Virus record (IMG/VR): IMGVR_UViG_2695420687_000007
Coordinates: 1-5,177 of that record
DNA length: 5,177 nucleotides
Source: a virus
Taxonomy: Duplodnaviria; Heunggongvirae; Uroviricota; Caudoviricetes
Direction: 5' to 3' (one strand)
Shown: positions 46 to 5,177 of the stretch, piece by piece
How positions within the stretch are numbered: position 1 is the first letter of the stretch
How the letters are laid out: the number at the start of each line of letters is the position of its first letter
The notes under the pieces: generated by a model
What the model saw: only the letters and a program-made list of their open reading frames with translations
Database searches by the model: none
Told to the model about the DNA's origin: nothing
Translations under genes and position numbers: made by a program

Positions 46-1599
<1,554 letters not shown>

Positions 1600-1609
1600 G
1601 TGAGGAATA

Positions 1610-3562
1610 ATGAGCACAAAATTCAAAACCGTTATCACCACTGCCGGTGCAGCAAAGCTGGCAGCGGCAACCGCGCCGGGAGGGCGGAAGGTCAACATTA
1701 CCACGATGGCCGTCGGGGATGGTGGTGGTAAATTGCCTGTCCCGGATGCCGGACAGACAAAACTTGTTAATGAGGTCTGGCGACATACCCTGAATAAAAT
1801 CAGTCAGGACAATCGACACAGTAATTATATTATCGCAGAGCTGGTTATTCCGCCGGAGGTGGGCGGTTTCTGGATGCGTGAGCTTGGCCTGTACGATGAT
1901 GCGGGAACGTTAATTGCCGTGGCGAACATGGCCGAAAGTTATAAGCCAGCCCTTGCCGAAGGCTCAGGGCGTTCGCAGACCTGCCGCATGGTCATCATCG
2001 TCAGCAGTGTGGCCTCAGTGGCGCTGACCATTGACACCACAACGGTGATGGCGACGCAGGATTACGTTGACGACAAAATTGCAGAGCACGAACAGTCGCG
2101 ACGTCACCCGGACGCCTCGCTGACCGCAAAAGGTTTTACTCAGTTAAGCAGTGCGACCAACAGTACGTCTGAAACACTGGCCGCAACGCCAAAAGCTGTT
2201 AAGGCGGTAATGGATGAAACGAACAAGAAAGCGCCGCTGTCGAGTCCGGCACTCACCGGAACGCCAACCGCACCAACTGCGCCAAAGGGCACTAACAATA
2301 CTCAGATAGCAAACACGGCGTTCGTTATGGCCGCGATTGCCGCACTTGTAGACTCATCACCTGACGCACTGAATACGCTGAACGAGCTGGCTGCGGCACT
2401 GGGCAATGACCCGAACTTTGCGACCACTATGACCAACGCGCTTGCGGGCAAGCAGCCGAAAGATGCCACCCTGACGGCGCTGGCCGGGCTTGCTACTGCG
2501 GCAGACAGGTTTCCGTATTTTACGGGGAATGACACCGCCAGCCTGGCAACTCTGACAAAAGTTGGGCGAGATATTCTGGCTAAAGCGACCGTTGCCGCCG
2601 TTATCGAATACCTCGGTTTGCAGGAAACGGTAGAGTTAGCGGCAGGGGCGGTACCAGCAACACGCAAAGTAAATGGGCGTGCGTTAACCAGTGATATAAA
2701 TGTTACTTCGCAGGATATTTTTAATGGGCAGAGCATTTCTATTGGTGCTAATCAAAACTTAAATGATTATATGACTCCTGGTCTGTATCATCAGTCGCTC
2801 AACGCTAATACAAGCTCTGCGTTAAACTACCCGGAGAATAACGCCGGAAATTTAATTGTGTTAAAAAATGCTGGCGTAAAACAAATTTATCATGTGTATA
2901 ACTCCTCAAGAGTGTGGTCACGTAGCAAATATTCATCAGAACCATGGACACCGTGGGCACGAGAATATAATTCACAAAGCAAACCGACCCCGGCAGAGCT
3001 CGCAGTGTTGGCATTAGCTGGCGGTAGCATGTCAGGGAGTATTAAATTTATAAATGATGCCTTCCTGATTTGGGAAAGAAACACCGACTGGGCGAAAATC
3101 GGATTTAAAAATGATTCAGATTCCGATACTGACTCATACCTGTGGTTTGAAACTGGTGATAATGGCAATGAATATTTCAAATGGCGTACCAGGGTTGGAA
3201 GCGCAACAAAAGACTTAATGTTTTTGAAGTCTGATGCGCTCAGAGTCACAGGTCAGGTGATACCAGCTAATTATGGTAATTTTGATTCACGTTATCAGGC
3301 TAAAAATACCGCGTCCAAAGCGGCGAATGGCTGGCATAAAGATGCCTCTACAGGAATTATTACGCAGTGGGGGTATATTTCTAATGCTGGAGCAGGTTTA
3401 ACATTTCCAGTGGCTTTTCCCTCTGCCTGCGCAAGCATAACAATCACTAACGCACACGGGCGATTTGACTACAGTATTGCTGTTAACTCACTATCCAGAA
3501 CCGGGGCAAAATTTAACAGTGAAGGTAATGGCAATATGTACTGGACAGCTATAGGTTACTAA
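1610..3562 (+). CDS. H: Phage tail fibre protein (P2 gpH-like), conserved N-terminal baseplate-attachment half and divergent C-terminal receptor-binding half
   Basis: 650 aa ORF. The first ~350 residues ([24 protein letters not shown]...[24 protein letters not shown]...AAVIEYLGL) closely match remembered P2 gpH. RBS-like gagga at 1602..1606. The distal portion contains an [36 protein letters not shown] block and a C-terminus ending ...NMYWTAIGY. Stop TAA 3560..3562. Confidence 0.9.
3020..3031 (+). promoter_or_regulatory. ops-like 12-mer GGCGGTAGCATG (matches RfaH recruitment consensus GGCGGTAGnnTG) on the H coding strand; function unproven
   Basis: Exact string at 3020..3031, in frame as codons GGC GGT AGC ATG (G G S M). 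The consensus is from my memory of the ops literature. It lies inside a coding region, not a 5' leader, so may be fortuitous. Confidence 0.15.
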
Positions 3563-3563
3563 T

Positions 3564-3977
3564 ATGACGATTTATTACAGCCCATCAACGAAAGGTTTTT
3601 ACGACGATAAATTAAAAAACGACTACCAGAATAATGACTCATGGCCAGAAGACCTTACTGAAATATCAGAGCGATGGTATAACTATCTTTTGCAAAAGCA
3701 GTCAGAAGGAAAAACTATTAATATCAATGAATATGGTCAGCCAGTAGTTACAGAACCAGAGCTGCCAACTCAGGAAGAGTTAACAGGACAAGCAGAGAGA
3801 CAAAAATCTAAGCTTCTGACAGAAGCGGAGTCTGTCATATTGCCACTGGAGCGCGCTGTCAGGCTGAATATGGCAACAGATGAGGAGCGCAGCCGACTGG
3901 AAGCATGGGAACGCTACAGCGTTCTGGTCAGTCGTGTGGATACAGCAAATCCCGAATGGCTGGAAATACCGCAATAA
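3564..3977 (+). CDS. Tail fibre assembly chaperone (Tfa; P2 gpG / lambda Tfa family), short form
   Basis: 137 aa ORF starting 1 bp after the H stop. C-terminus ...[31 protein letters not shown] fits the conserved C-terminal pattern of Tfa chaperones. Position immediately after the fibre gene matches P2 H-G and Mu S-U synteny. N-terminal part is divergent and AT-rich. Confidence 0.8.
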
Positions 3978-3981
3978 ATAC

Positions 3982-4009
3982 AGGCGGGCTTATTGCCCGC
4001 CTTTTCTTT
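3982..4009 (+). terminator. Rho-independent terminator after the tail-fibre operon
   Basis: Stem aggcgggc (3982..3989) pairs perfectly with gcccgcct (3995..4002) around loop ttatt, followed by the T-rich run ttttcttt. It sits 5 bp after the tfa stop. Confidence 0.75.
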
Positions 4010-4109
4010 ACCGGTGGTTGTGCTGTCGATTAGCCAACCGGGACAAATAGCCTGACATCTCCGGCACAACTGAAAATAGCACTCACCCATTAACCACGGA
4101 GTTAAACGG

Positions 4110-5087
4110 ATGAGTGACTATCATCACGGCGTGCAGGTGCTGGAGATTAACGACGGCACCCGCGTCATTTCCACCGTATCAACCGCCATTGTCGGCATGC
4201 TCTGCACGGCCAGCGATGCGGATTCGGAAACCTTCCCCGTCAATAAACCGGTGCTGATCACCAATGTGCAGAGCGCGATTGCAAAGGCCGGTAAAAAAGG
4301 CACGCTGGCGGCGTCGTTGCAGGCCATCGCTGACCAGTCAAAACCGGTCACCGTTGTCGTGCGTGTGGAAGACGGCACCGGCGACGACGAAGAAACGAAA
4401 CTTGCACAGACCGTTTCCAATATCATCGGCACCACCGACGAAAACGGTCAGTACACCGGACTGAAAGCCCTGATGGGCGCTGAGTCGGTTACCGGCGTTA
4501 AACCGCGCATTCTCGGCGTGCCGGGACTGGATACCAAAGAGGTGGCTGTCGCACTGGCATCGGTATGCCAGGAACTGAATGCATTCGGGTATATCAGCGC
4601 ATGGGGCTGTAAAACCATTTCCGAGGTGAAAGCCTACCGCCAGAATTTCAGCCAGCGTGAGCTGATGGTCATCTGGCCGGATTTCCTCGCATGGGATACG
4701 GTCACCAGTGCCACCGCCACCGCGTATGCCACCGCCCGTGCGCTGGGCCTGCGCGCTAAAATCGACCAGGAGCAGGGCTGGCATAAAACACTGTCCAACG
4801 TCGGGGTAAACGGTGTTACCGGCATCAGTGCGTCCGTATTCTGGGATTTGCAGAAGCCAGGCACCGATGCTGACCTGCTGAACGAGGCAGGCGTCACAAC
4901 GCTGATTCGCCGCGACGGTTTCCGTTTCTGGGGTAACCGTACCTGCTCCGATGACCCGCTGTTCCTCTTTGAAAGCTACACCCGTACCGCGCAGGTACTG
5001 GCCGACACGATGGCTGAGGCGCACATGTGGGCTATTGATAAGCCAATTACCGCAACGCTGATTCGCGACATCATTGACGGCATTAAT
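4110..5087 (+). CDS. FI: Contractile tail sheath protein (P2 gpFI-like), 3'-truncated at about codon 326
   Basis: Not in the ORF track because no stop occurs before the window end. ATG at 4110..4112 with GGAG at 4097..4100. My translation ([30 protein letters not shown]...[56 protein letters not shown]) is near-identical to remembered P2 FI (about 396 aa) up to the GIN codons ending at 5087. Confidence 0.88.
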
Positions 5088-5177
5088 TTTGAGGAAGTCG
5101 CGGCACTGCCTGGCGTCGGACGCTCCACCGCAGGCGCTATCCTCTCACTTTCTCTGGGTAAGCACTTTCCGATTCTC
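5088..5177 (+). CDS. mutY: Internal fragment of adenine DNA glycosylase MutY (helix-hairpin-helix motif region), fused in-frame to the truncated sheath gene
   Basis: Same frame as FI translates [30 protein letters not shown], which matches remembered E. coli MutY around residues 110-140 (..[43 protein letters not shown]..). LPGVGxxTA is the HhH DNA-glycosylase signature and has no place in a tail sheath. Confidence 0.75.

Follow-up and report, generated by a model that had tools for sequence, protein, structure and literature searches.

How does a phage built on the plan of P2 come by the distal half of its tail fibre, and what travels with that half? The question is raised by the stretch of DNA analysed here (5,177 nucleotides, hereafter the window), which holds the fibre gene H and the chaperone gene G of a P2-like (Peduoviridae) prophage of Escherichia albertii. 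A first-pass annotation had read the AT-rich distal half of H, together with its short chaperone, as a receptor-binding cassette grafted onto a P2-conserved shaft. We argue that the fibre very likely combines a P2-type base with an R-pyocin-like distal H and a tip-specific chaperone, and that the arm was probably acquired or exchanged in a double crossover with a lineage in which it is invertible. The distal half itself is composite, with at least three modules of different affinities rather than one graft.

The gene order I - H - G - FI matches that of P2 (Table 1), and the whole P2 order is found in the complete prophages L001-L003. FI follows G without an intervening moron of the P2 fun(Z) type, and the region upstream of P2 FI aligns from 3980. 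Phage sequence starts abruptly at 1525 (in blastn, P2-like records and the complete prophages L001-L005 begin at 1525 or 1527), and at 5087 FI runs in frame into a mutY fragment. The contig is a chimera of tatD-rfaH, phage and mutY, which are unlinked in E. coli. Although these joins might suggest that the fibre mosaic is likewise an artefact of assembly, there is scarcely any chance that it is: an H of 650 aa with the identical sequence, again followed by the same 137-aa chaperone, is found on 11 further contigs, among them some of 260-366 kb that carry complete prophages with 99.9% identity over 1525-5087. The idea of an orphan fibre gene inserted beside rfaH was rejected in view of FI downstream, the chimeric contig ends and the identical H-G pair in complete prophages. 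The exact H protein carries the database name 'phage tail protein [Escherichia albertii]'. The W and J genes are shortened in some prophage copies (L001 and L005), and an IS200/IS605-type insertion is present in all of L001-L003. One E. albertii assembly that carries the prophage is GCA_027565295.1.

Table 1. Features of the fibre locus, in positions of the window
Feature	Position	Strand	Basis
Baseplate gene I (P2-type), last ~70 nt, and I-H spacer	1527..1609	+	blastn
Tail-fibre gene H, 650 aa	1610..3562	+	ORF, Pfam
H N-terminal part, P2 lineage (collar and first repeat)	1610..2170	+	identity to L008
GC-rich shaft common to the invertible-segment lineage	2170..2600	+	identity to L015
Cin/Gin-type 26-bp recombination site (cix-like), TTATCGAATACCTCGGTTTGCAGGAA, encodes VIEYLGLQE	2601..2626	+	20/26 to P1 cixR
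Knob module, H residues 342-470, AT-rich, missing from P2 H	2633..3019	+	phmmer, AF2/Foldseek
Conserved fibre block, H residues 471-545 (...GNEYFKWR)	3020..3244	+	match to Mu S
GNFDSRY junction motif, H residues 546-562	3245..3295	+	conserved in P2 H, Mu S
Putative receptor-binding tip, gp53-like / R-pyocin foot, H residues 563-650 (88 residues)	3296..3559	+	Pfam, PDB matches
Tail-fibre assembly chaperone (G/Tfa), 137 aa	3564..3977	+	Pfam Caudo_TAP E 4.6e-28
Chaperone N-domain, residues 1-67, AT-rich	3564..3764	+	without similarity to P2 G
Chaperone C-domain, residues 68-137, conserved helical hairpin	3765..3974	+	match to Mu U
Intrinsic terminator-like hairpin and T-run, directly after chaperone	3982..4010	+	terminator scan
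Tail sheath gene FI, truncated	4110..5087	+	translation, Pfam, blastn

At the protein level the proximal part of H follows P2 closely. Pfam places Phage_tail_fib (PF12571) at residues 1-151 (E 1.7e-58) and Phage_fiber_2 (PF03406) at residues 170-209 (E 1.2e-20), and residues 1-341 are 95.6% identical to a P2 variant and 94.7% identical to canonical P2 H, which carries one extra 44-residue repeat relative to H here. The earlier estimate that about 350 residues are nearly P2-identical was thus accurate up to residue 341. Over its whole length H is not collinear with P2 H, as only residues 1-341, a 76-residue conserved block and the 17-residue junction motif correspond; in the DNA, collinearity with P2 stops at 2632 and restarts at 3822. 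The extra block of roughly 100 residues that had been proposed before the GNEYFKWR segment was borne out (residues ~357-470, about 114, are missing from P2 H), and so was the C-terminal tip unrelated to P2, in that residues 563-650 give no alignment to P2 H. The DNA also divides the proximal part in two. Positions 1610-2170 are 95-100% identical to the P2-like phage L008 in most 60-nt windows (80-90% around 1707-1797) and only 72% identical to L015, a representative of the invertible-segment lineage. Positions 2170-2600 are 98-100% identical to L015 over most of their length (93-95% near 2520-2600) and 80-96% identical to L008; the best match to this shaft segment among 5,426 complete E. coli genomes is ~91%.

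Low GC had been taken as the signature of the graft. The step as such is real, since GC is 41.5% in 2633-3821 and 56.0% in the phage flanks (z = -8.2), so that the profile across H and the chaperone is not uniform and the AT-rich distal H and chaperone are followed by a GC-rich return, as first described. By part, GC is 55.8% in H from 1610 to 2650 and 42.0% from 2651 to 3562, 37.3% in chaperone codons 1-76 and 51.6% at the chaperone C-terminus, and 57.6% in FI. Two boundaries had to be corrected, the left one from 2650 to 2633 and the GC-rich, P2-like return from the last ~45 to the last ~50 chaperone codons. Amino-acid composition as the sole cause of the low GC was rejected because GC3 drops as well, from 0.50-0.72 to 0.26-0.44. 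However, P2 H shows the same step at the same site (from 55.7% to 43.7%), and GC in P2 G rises from 38.0% to 52.4%, paralleling the rise here. With a step at the homologous site of P2, low GC is not diagnostic of a graft relative to P2, and the step predates the window's phage.

What lies at this boundary is not a plain graft edge but a cix/gix-like inversion site, which had been missed, and the AT-rich stretch begins 6 nt after it. The site agrees with the annotated P1 cixR at 20 of 26 positions and occupies the same place in the fibre protein; it occurs once in the window, where chance would give 0 matches. No second cix-like site was found in the window, even at 1 mismatch, and no long inverted repeat in 2400-4200; the prophage L001 likewise has a single site. 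Nor does the window hold an invertase, the terminator and FI coming directly after the chaperone, and no Resolvase-family gene is listed in L001-L003. In L013, L014, L015, L018, L025 and Fels-2 the site flanks an invertible segment as an inverted pair, and a serine invertase (that of L015 is 76% identical to P1 Cin) together with a second, opposed tip-plus-chaperone arm is present in L013-L015, L018 and L025. Sibling E. albertii prophages carry the arm of distal H and short chaperone beside a Cin-like invertase, with both orientations seen, and the arm of the window is 94% identical to that of L015 over 1851 nt without gaps. In the window the arm is thus fixed, with a single site and with neither a second arm nor an invertase, which indicates that the host range is fixed and not switchable. 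The core of the site carries a synonymous C-to-T change in two non-invertible phages, canonical P2 and the P2 variant L008; here the site does not differ from the active ones of the invertible lineage. It is conceivable, if quite improbable, that the lone intact site is a working docking point at which a Cin/Pin-family invertase, acting in trans from a co-resident prophage, exchanges distal fibre cassettes. If this were true, site-specific as well as homologous recombination would carry cassettes from one prophage to another, or pass them between a prophage and an infecting phage.

Beyond the site, each module of H has relatives of its own. The NCBIfam scan returned no family for H or G. In the knob, phmmer aligns H 376-455 to the R-pyocin (R2/R1) fibre (6ct8 37-113 and 6cl5 135-214). 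H was modelled by AF2 as a monomer, with low confidence in its middle third; the knob model reaches a pLDDT of ~90, and its top Foldseek matches are 6cl6 and 6ct8 (E 2e-10), the R-pyocin fibre 6cxb being also among the PDB matches of H. The closest relatives of the knob are Photorhabdus 'pyocin knob domain-containing' proteins (54-57% identical), and NCBI names a near-identical (99%) H protein 'pyocin knob domain-containing protein'. The conserved fibre block that follows matches Mu S residues 186-265 in 5yvq_A (whole-sequence E 1e-35) and is 69.7% identical to P2 H 396-471, while its DNA is ~80-85% identical to P2, P1, Mu and fiAA91-ss. The GNFDSRY motif appears to be a recurrent recombination junction preceding the tip; DNA homology with other carriers of the tip (L013, L016, L020-L022) starts only at 3245-3284. 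The tip itself has the Pfam domain Gp53-like_C (PF21882) at H 580-650 (E 6.9e-13), sequence matches to 6ct8, 6cl5 and 4mtm (AP22 gp53), and a Foldseek fold match to 4mtm with a TM-score of 0.53 normalised to the target. Among 50,697 phage genomes no relative that covers the tip domain exceeds 45% identity, and the best domain-spanning matches (40-45% identical) are in Klebsiella and E. coli jumbo phages. The comparison with characterised phage fibres that had been suggested for the tip gave none above ~45% identity.

The chaperone ATG at 3564 lies 1 nt past the H stop codon (3560-3562), and the two genes are probably translationally coupled. Caudo_TAP (PF02413) spans chaperone residues 9-134. 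The protein is as short as had been noted (137 aa versus 175 aa for P2 G, to which only residues 69-137 align), and belongs to a family with relatives of 135-144 aa. Its AF2 model (pLDDT 92.9) has two domains, a small alpha/beta domain over residues 1-63 and a C-domain with helices at 70-100 and 106-123. The N-domain has no sequence similarity to P2 G or Mu U and is 100% identical in L013-L015. Residues 67-136 match Mu U 105-174 (E 3e-27), and the DNA is P2-like from ~3822, with 3822-3977 being 89% identical to a P2-like G. Foldseek with the chaperone model against the PDB gave no match at E<0.1 and did not recover TfaMu (5yvq_B).

The two halves of the chaperone also differ in what they accompany. 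In all related loci with an intact tip ORF, collected by exact-protein look-ups, a short chaperone lies 1-3 nt downstream of a gp53-like foot, and the pair of tip and N-domain occurs in P2-like, Mu-like, IncFII-plasmid and other myovirus backgrounds. A chaperone-alignment scan of species-representative genomes gave one locus only, in Salmonella. Tip identity tracks the identity of the chaperone N-domain with a Spearman coefficient of 0.85 (n=10), as against 0.38 for the C-domain, and in L025 the same N-domain family is joined to an unrelated C-domain (25% identity). As far as sequence can tell, foot and N-domain move horizontally as a pair that sits on a fibre base of P2 type, and the C-domain does not move with them. 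The earlier proposal of a horizontally exchanged tip and chaperone therefore stands for the tip and for that half of the chaperone which would bind the fibre, but fails for the C-domain, and the reading of the distal half as a single grafted cassette gives way to at least three modules. Given that no fold match to the Mu Tfa N-domain was obtained, we infer binding of the N-domain to the fibre tip from position, co-variation and family and not from structure. For Mu and Pam3, Tfa has been described as modular, its N-domain being variable and fibre-binding and its C-domain conserved (PMC9608196).

Where, then, did the arm enter? The block common to the L015 lineage runs from ~2170 to ~3800 and is mostly 96-100% identical, and both of its sides are P2-like. 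The left crossover zone (~2130-2190) falls inside the Phage_fiber_2 repeat and the right one (~3810-3835) in the chaperone C-domain, within which identity to L015 falls to 56-73% over ~3845-3900. The shared block thus extends ~460 nt into the GC-rich shaft, and its junction lies away from the GC boundary at which it had been placed at first. In the sequence of events that we favour, a non-invertible P2-type phage would have acquired or exchanged the arm by double homologous crossover, one crossover falling in the conserved Phage_fiber_2 repeat or shaft and the other in the conserved chaperone C-domain, which would have fixed one host-range alternative. The chaperone C-domain is the helical oligomerisation domain conserved across P2 G, Mu U and lambda Tfa; by analogy, the N-domain would dock on the foot and aid fibre trimerisation. 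The direction of transfer is not readable from two lineages, and the shaft segment may instead have passed from a P2-type phage to the invertible lineage.

Other histories have to be weighed against this double exchange. One foreign, AT-rich segment spanning about 2650 to 3850, grafted onto a P2 fibre at the GC boundary and showing its recent foreign origin by its low GC, would fit both the GC step and a P2 similarity that ends at 2632 and resumes at 3822. Such a graft is nevertheless unlikely, as the step is shared by P2, the near-identity to the L015 lineage sets in well upstream of it, and the segment is a mosaic, in which the knob resembles Photorhabdus, STYP1 and Chuche, the conserved block resembles fiAA91-ss, P1 and Mu, and the tip is common to L013, L016 and L020-L022 only from its junction motif on. 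Direct descent from an invertible-segment phage, with deletion of the second arm and invertase and without any double exchange into a P2 backbone, would in turn explain why an intact cix-like site is kept and why the arm aligns to that of L015 without gaps. We consider it very improbable because the N-terminus of H (1562-2205) is only 72% identical to L015 and mostly 95-100% identical to a P2-like phage, and because the chaperone C-domain and everything downstream are P2-type. Moreover, the invertase of L013-L015 has U and T after it, in opposite orientation, instead of FI, and thus the backbones differ.

As to what the acquired arm recognises, R-pyocin fibres bind LPS sugars via foot and knob and require a cognate chaperone (PMC11871291), and by this analogy the ligand of foot and knob here is probably a saccharide, LPS core or O-antigen, on the surface of E. 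albertii-like hosts. The tip is found in E. albertii and E. marmotae, more distant forms of it occur in Salmonella and Citrobacter, and it is absent from the 5,426 complete E. coli genomes; it may thus mark a surface structure that separates these hosts. Our literature search found no paper on the fibres of E. albertii P2-like prophages. Tail-fibre swapping is already well known, and the present case is a nicely resolved but ordinary example, which leaves the current understanding of tail-fibre evolution unchanged. Its use lies in being a precisely mapped natural case of retargeting in a P2-family phage, with an exchangeable unit that has conserved patches at its edges: to the left the fibre repeat or the cix-like site plus GNFDSRY, to the right the chaperone C-domain. 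Where P2 particles or tailocins are to be engineered, these edges would serve as practical fusion points, and the tip must then travel with the first ~67 codons of its chaperone.

Among known systems, P2 provides the frame: its H and G hold the same position between I and FI, the chaperone C-domain here is 77% identical to that of P2 G, and P2 has its GC step at the same cix-like sequence. In contrast to P2 H, the distal half here has a knob and an unrelated tip and is without the ~120 residues that P2 H has between the conserved block and GNFDSRY. The N-domain of P2 G (106 aa) is unrelated to the 67-aa domain here, and P2 has the fun(Z) moron after G, which the phage here is without. Horizontal transfer of these tail-fibre genes among unrelated phages is already stated in the title of Haggard-Ljungquist et al. 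1992, as cited in PMC13100340. Like the window, the P1 C-segment (Cin), the Mu G-segment (Gin), Fels-2 and the segments of L013-L015, L018 and L025 have a 26-bp site at the junction of constant and variable parts of the fibre gene, and the nearest named short chaperone, Fels-2 STM2704 (52.6% identical), lies inside an invertible segment. They differ in that the window and the complete prophage copies are without a second site, a second arm and an invertase. Mu U (TfaMu, PDB 5yvq) matches in its C-domain and follows the same two-domain logic (PMC9608196), although the N-domain here is 40 residues shorter and has neither sequence similarity nor a Foldseek match to 5yvq_B. The fibre Prf15 (PA0620) of the R-type pyocins differs in identity overall (about 21-22%), in that one knob rather than two was detected in H, and in the Mu S-type conserved block that H has between knob and foot; the fibre here also has 41% GC, an enterobacterial host and a place in a phage rather than in a tailocin. 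Yet R-type pyocins are P2-related contractile systems (PMC11871291), the knob and the C-terminal lectin-like foot of Prf15 are recognisable in H by sequence (E 1e-12 to 5e-11) and by fold (E 2e-10; PDB 6cl5, 6cl6, 6ct8), and the cognate chaperone gene (Prf16) lies directly downstream of the fibre gene, as it does here.

The distal half of the tail-fibre gene H and the front of the short chaperone gene behind it form an AT-rich stretch in P2-like DNA. Up to position 2650, H has a GC content of 55.8%; the remainder of the gene drops to 42.0% and chaperone codons 1-76 to 37.3%, before the value climbs to 51.6% at the C-terminal end of the chaperone and 57.6% within the sheath gene FI, as the first-pass annotation had judged by eye. 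Third-position GC drops alongside the total, and 2633-3821 stands at 41.5% against 56.0% in the phage flanks (z = -8.2). The described likeness to P2 is also present: residues 1-341 of H share 94.7% identity with canonical P2 H (in which a further 44-residue repeat occurs), about 114 residues (357-470) before the GNEYFKWR-type conserved block lack a P2 H counterpart, and the final 88 residues give no P2 H alignment. The chaperone has 137 aa versus 175 aa in P2 G, to which only its residues 69-137 align, and collinearity with P2-like phage DNA stops at 2632 and restarts at 3822. However, the GC step cannot be taken as the mark of a recent graft, since P2 has the same pattern at the homologous position (H, 55.7% proximal and 43.7% distal; G, 38.0% in the first 60% of the gene and 52.4% in the last 40%). 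Because the step recurs in a P2 variant (L008) and in an E. albertii prophage (L015), low GC characterises the variable fibre arms as an entire pool rather than the window's phage.

A site at 2601-2626 (TTATCGAATACCTCGGTTTGCAGGAA) agrees with the annotated P1 cixR in 20 of its 26 positions and has the same place in the fibre protein (VIEYLGLQE in the window, VIQYLGLRE in P1). It occurs once in the window, where none is expected by chance. The AT-rich sequence starts 6 nt past it, exactly where the two arms of related invertible segments diverge; the GC boundary is a recombinase site. In Fels-2 and five related E. albertii prophages (L013, L014, L015, L018 and L025), two sites in inverted orientation bracket a segment with two opposed tip-plus-chaperone arms, adjoining a serine invertase that in L015 is 76% identical to P1 Cin. 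Given that L015 and L013/L014 share flanks but differ in the orientation of the inner segment, inversion has happened in nature. The window's cassette is one arm of an L015-type segment (2128-3978 aligns ungapped to L015 at 94.2%); the window, which has a single site and a single arm and lacks an invertase, is not itself such a segment. Canonical P2 (L009, 2381-2406) and L008, which have no inversion system, carry a cix-like sequence whose core differs by a synonymous C-to-T change: it reads ATATC instead of the ATACC that the window and the invertible lineage keep.

Sliding-window identity places the real lineage junctions in two zones, the left within the Phage_fiber_2 repeat and the right where the chaperone C-domain begins. 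Identity to L008 is mostly 95-100% up to ~2170, and the window is then ~96-100% identical to L015 across most of ~2170 to ~3800, with short stretches at 88-95%; P2-like identity is back from ~3835. In complete E. coli genomes, 2190-2632 has no match above ~91%, and past the conserved block the AT-rich cassette is absent from every such genome searched.

The window is one entire contig of 5177 bp (CDRK01000751.1, GCA_000936005.1) with three unrelated parts, whose loci are non-adjacent in E. coli. Bacterial and phage DNA meet at 1524/1525, with just a few bases in common, and FI runs in frame into the mutY piece at 5087/5088. Because complete P2-like prophages on 260-366 kb contigs, where they adjoin ogr / pflB-focA, share 99.9% identity with the phage fragment, both joins are assembly chimeras and the H-G region is genuine. 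The exact H protein carries the annotation of a phage tail protein from Escherichia albertii. The rfaH reading frame (825-1532, minus strand) is listed at 235 aa; its NusG-domain match begins at residue 76, homology to E. coli ends at 1320, and the opening ~73 codons probably extend the frame by chance into upstream sequence, as far as the chimeric join.

Parts of the contig and domains of the fibre and chaperone
Feature	Position	Match or content
tatD-rfaH	87-1320	88.6% identical to E. coli
P2-like prophage fragment	1525-5087	end of gene I, H, chaperone G, most of sheath gene FI
mutY internal piece	5087-5177	91% identical to E. coli; in frame with FI
P2 collar domain	H residues 1-151	Pfam
Fibre repeat, one copy	H residues 170-209	Pfam
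Knob	H residues ~376-455	R1 and R2 pyocin fibre knob (solved-structure search)
Conserved block	H residues 471-545	Mu fibre S 186-265 (solved-structure search)
GNFDSRY junction motif		Mu S ~425-442 (solved-structure search)
Foot start	H residues ~565-613	start of pyocin foot (solved-structure search)
Gp53-like_C	H residues 580-650	Pfam
Caudo_TAP	chaperone	Pfam

The entire tip matches AP22 gp53 in the solved-structure search. An AlphaFold model of H, for which 41 homologues were used, is confident for knob and foot (pLDDT 80-92) and poor in the trimeric middle part; the folds closest to it are those of the R2 pyocin fibre (E 2e-10) and of AP22 gp53. A near-identical (99%) distal half is already named 'pyocin knob domain-containing protein [Escherichia albertii]' at NCBI. 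The chaperone model is confident (pLDDT 92.9) and comprises a small alpha/beta N-domain (1-63), with no fold match in the PDB, and a two-helix hairpin (70-123), the region where Mu U 105-174 matches. Modular Tfa proteins bind the fibre tip through a variable N-domain, and their oligomerisation is driven by a conserved C-domain (PMC9608196), a picture with which the modelled layout agrees.

Tip and chaperone had been proposed to be exchanged as a pair, and they do travel together, specifically through the chaperone N-domain. Loci were recovered for ten relatives of the chaperone. In these, the short chaperone lies 1-3 nt after a gp53-like foot in P2-like prophages, in Mu-like prophages (L021, L024), on an E. 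marmotae IncFII plasmid (L016, L017), in other myovirus-type clusters (L020, L022) and in a Salmonella chromosome (L012), and DNA homology with these loci starts at 3245-3284, the GNFDSRY junction. The exception, L023, has a degraded tip: in this P1-like element of E. fergusonii (DarA, LydB; 2443-3500) ~31 codons of the tip are left upstream of the short chaperone, and its place is taken by a hexapeptide-repeat acetyltransferase-like gene. How closely a tip resembles that of the window goes with the identity of the N-domain (Spearman 0.85, n=10) and not with that of the C-domain (0.38). The smallest unit that moves is therefore the foot together with the N-domain of the chaperone, while C-domain and junction motif act as shared homology patches. 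The chaperones of L025 (3501-3920), P0142 and P0145 join an N-domain of the window's family (77% identical) to an unrelated C-domain (25% identical) and are natural domain-swapped Tfa proteins. In some database proteins the conserved C-domain is joined to an unrelated domain, such as a PF00959 lysozyme domain (P0168) or a fibre collar domain (P0206); these may be fusion or pseudogene products.

Directly after the chaperone, 3978-4109 holds a strong hairpin of terminator type (3982-4002, with a T-run), then the FI upstream region. This slot, empty in the window, holds fun(Z) in P2 and accessory genes (DUF5677, SMEK, others) in other P2-like phages. In the complete prophages with the window's H (L001-L003), two genes are inserted between tail S and baseplate V (~6280-7870; 5900-7490 in L002/L003): one for an IS200/IS605-type Y1 transposase and one of 357 aa without Pfam match, which also lies at the edge of L004 and L005. 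Some copies are probably defective: L001 (8591-9467) and L005 (1824-2700) encode a W of 109 aa and a J of 185 aa without the Baseplate_J_N domain, and L002, L003 and L004 a W of 115 aa and a J of 302 aa. Upstream of the L022 fibre (1-2417) is an unusually large gpI-like protein of 861 aa, with a Tail_P2_I domain and weak Big_2 and faint LRR matches.

Beyond the anatomy, boundaries, recombinase site, invertible siblings and co-travel, which are directly observed, we infer that a non-invertible P2-type phage gained one arm of an invertible host-range segment via double homologous recombination, which would have fixed that one specificity. The chaperone N-domain would dock on the foot and aid trimerisation. 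By analogy with R-pyocin fibres, which bind saccharide through foot and knob (PMC11871291), the foot and knob of H may bind a surface saccharide. Against 50,697 phage genomes the tip has no domain-spanning match above ~45% identity, the best being in Klebsiella and E. coli jumbo phages, and it is a variant that isolated phages have not shown. The first sequence paper on P2 H and G, by Haggard-Ljungquist et al. in 1992 (listed among the references of PMC13100340), reportedly concluded that P2, Mu, P1 and lambda exchange the distal fibre and its chaperone horizontally. The locus is a further example of this already known exchange, and modular chaperones and R-pyocin fibre architecture are likewise published (PMC9608196, PMC11871291); what it gives is a clear view of how a fixed cassette relates to an invertible segment.
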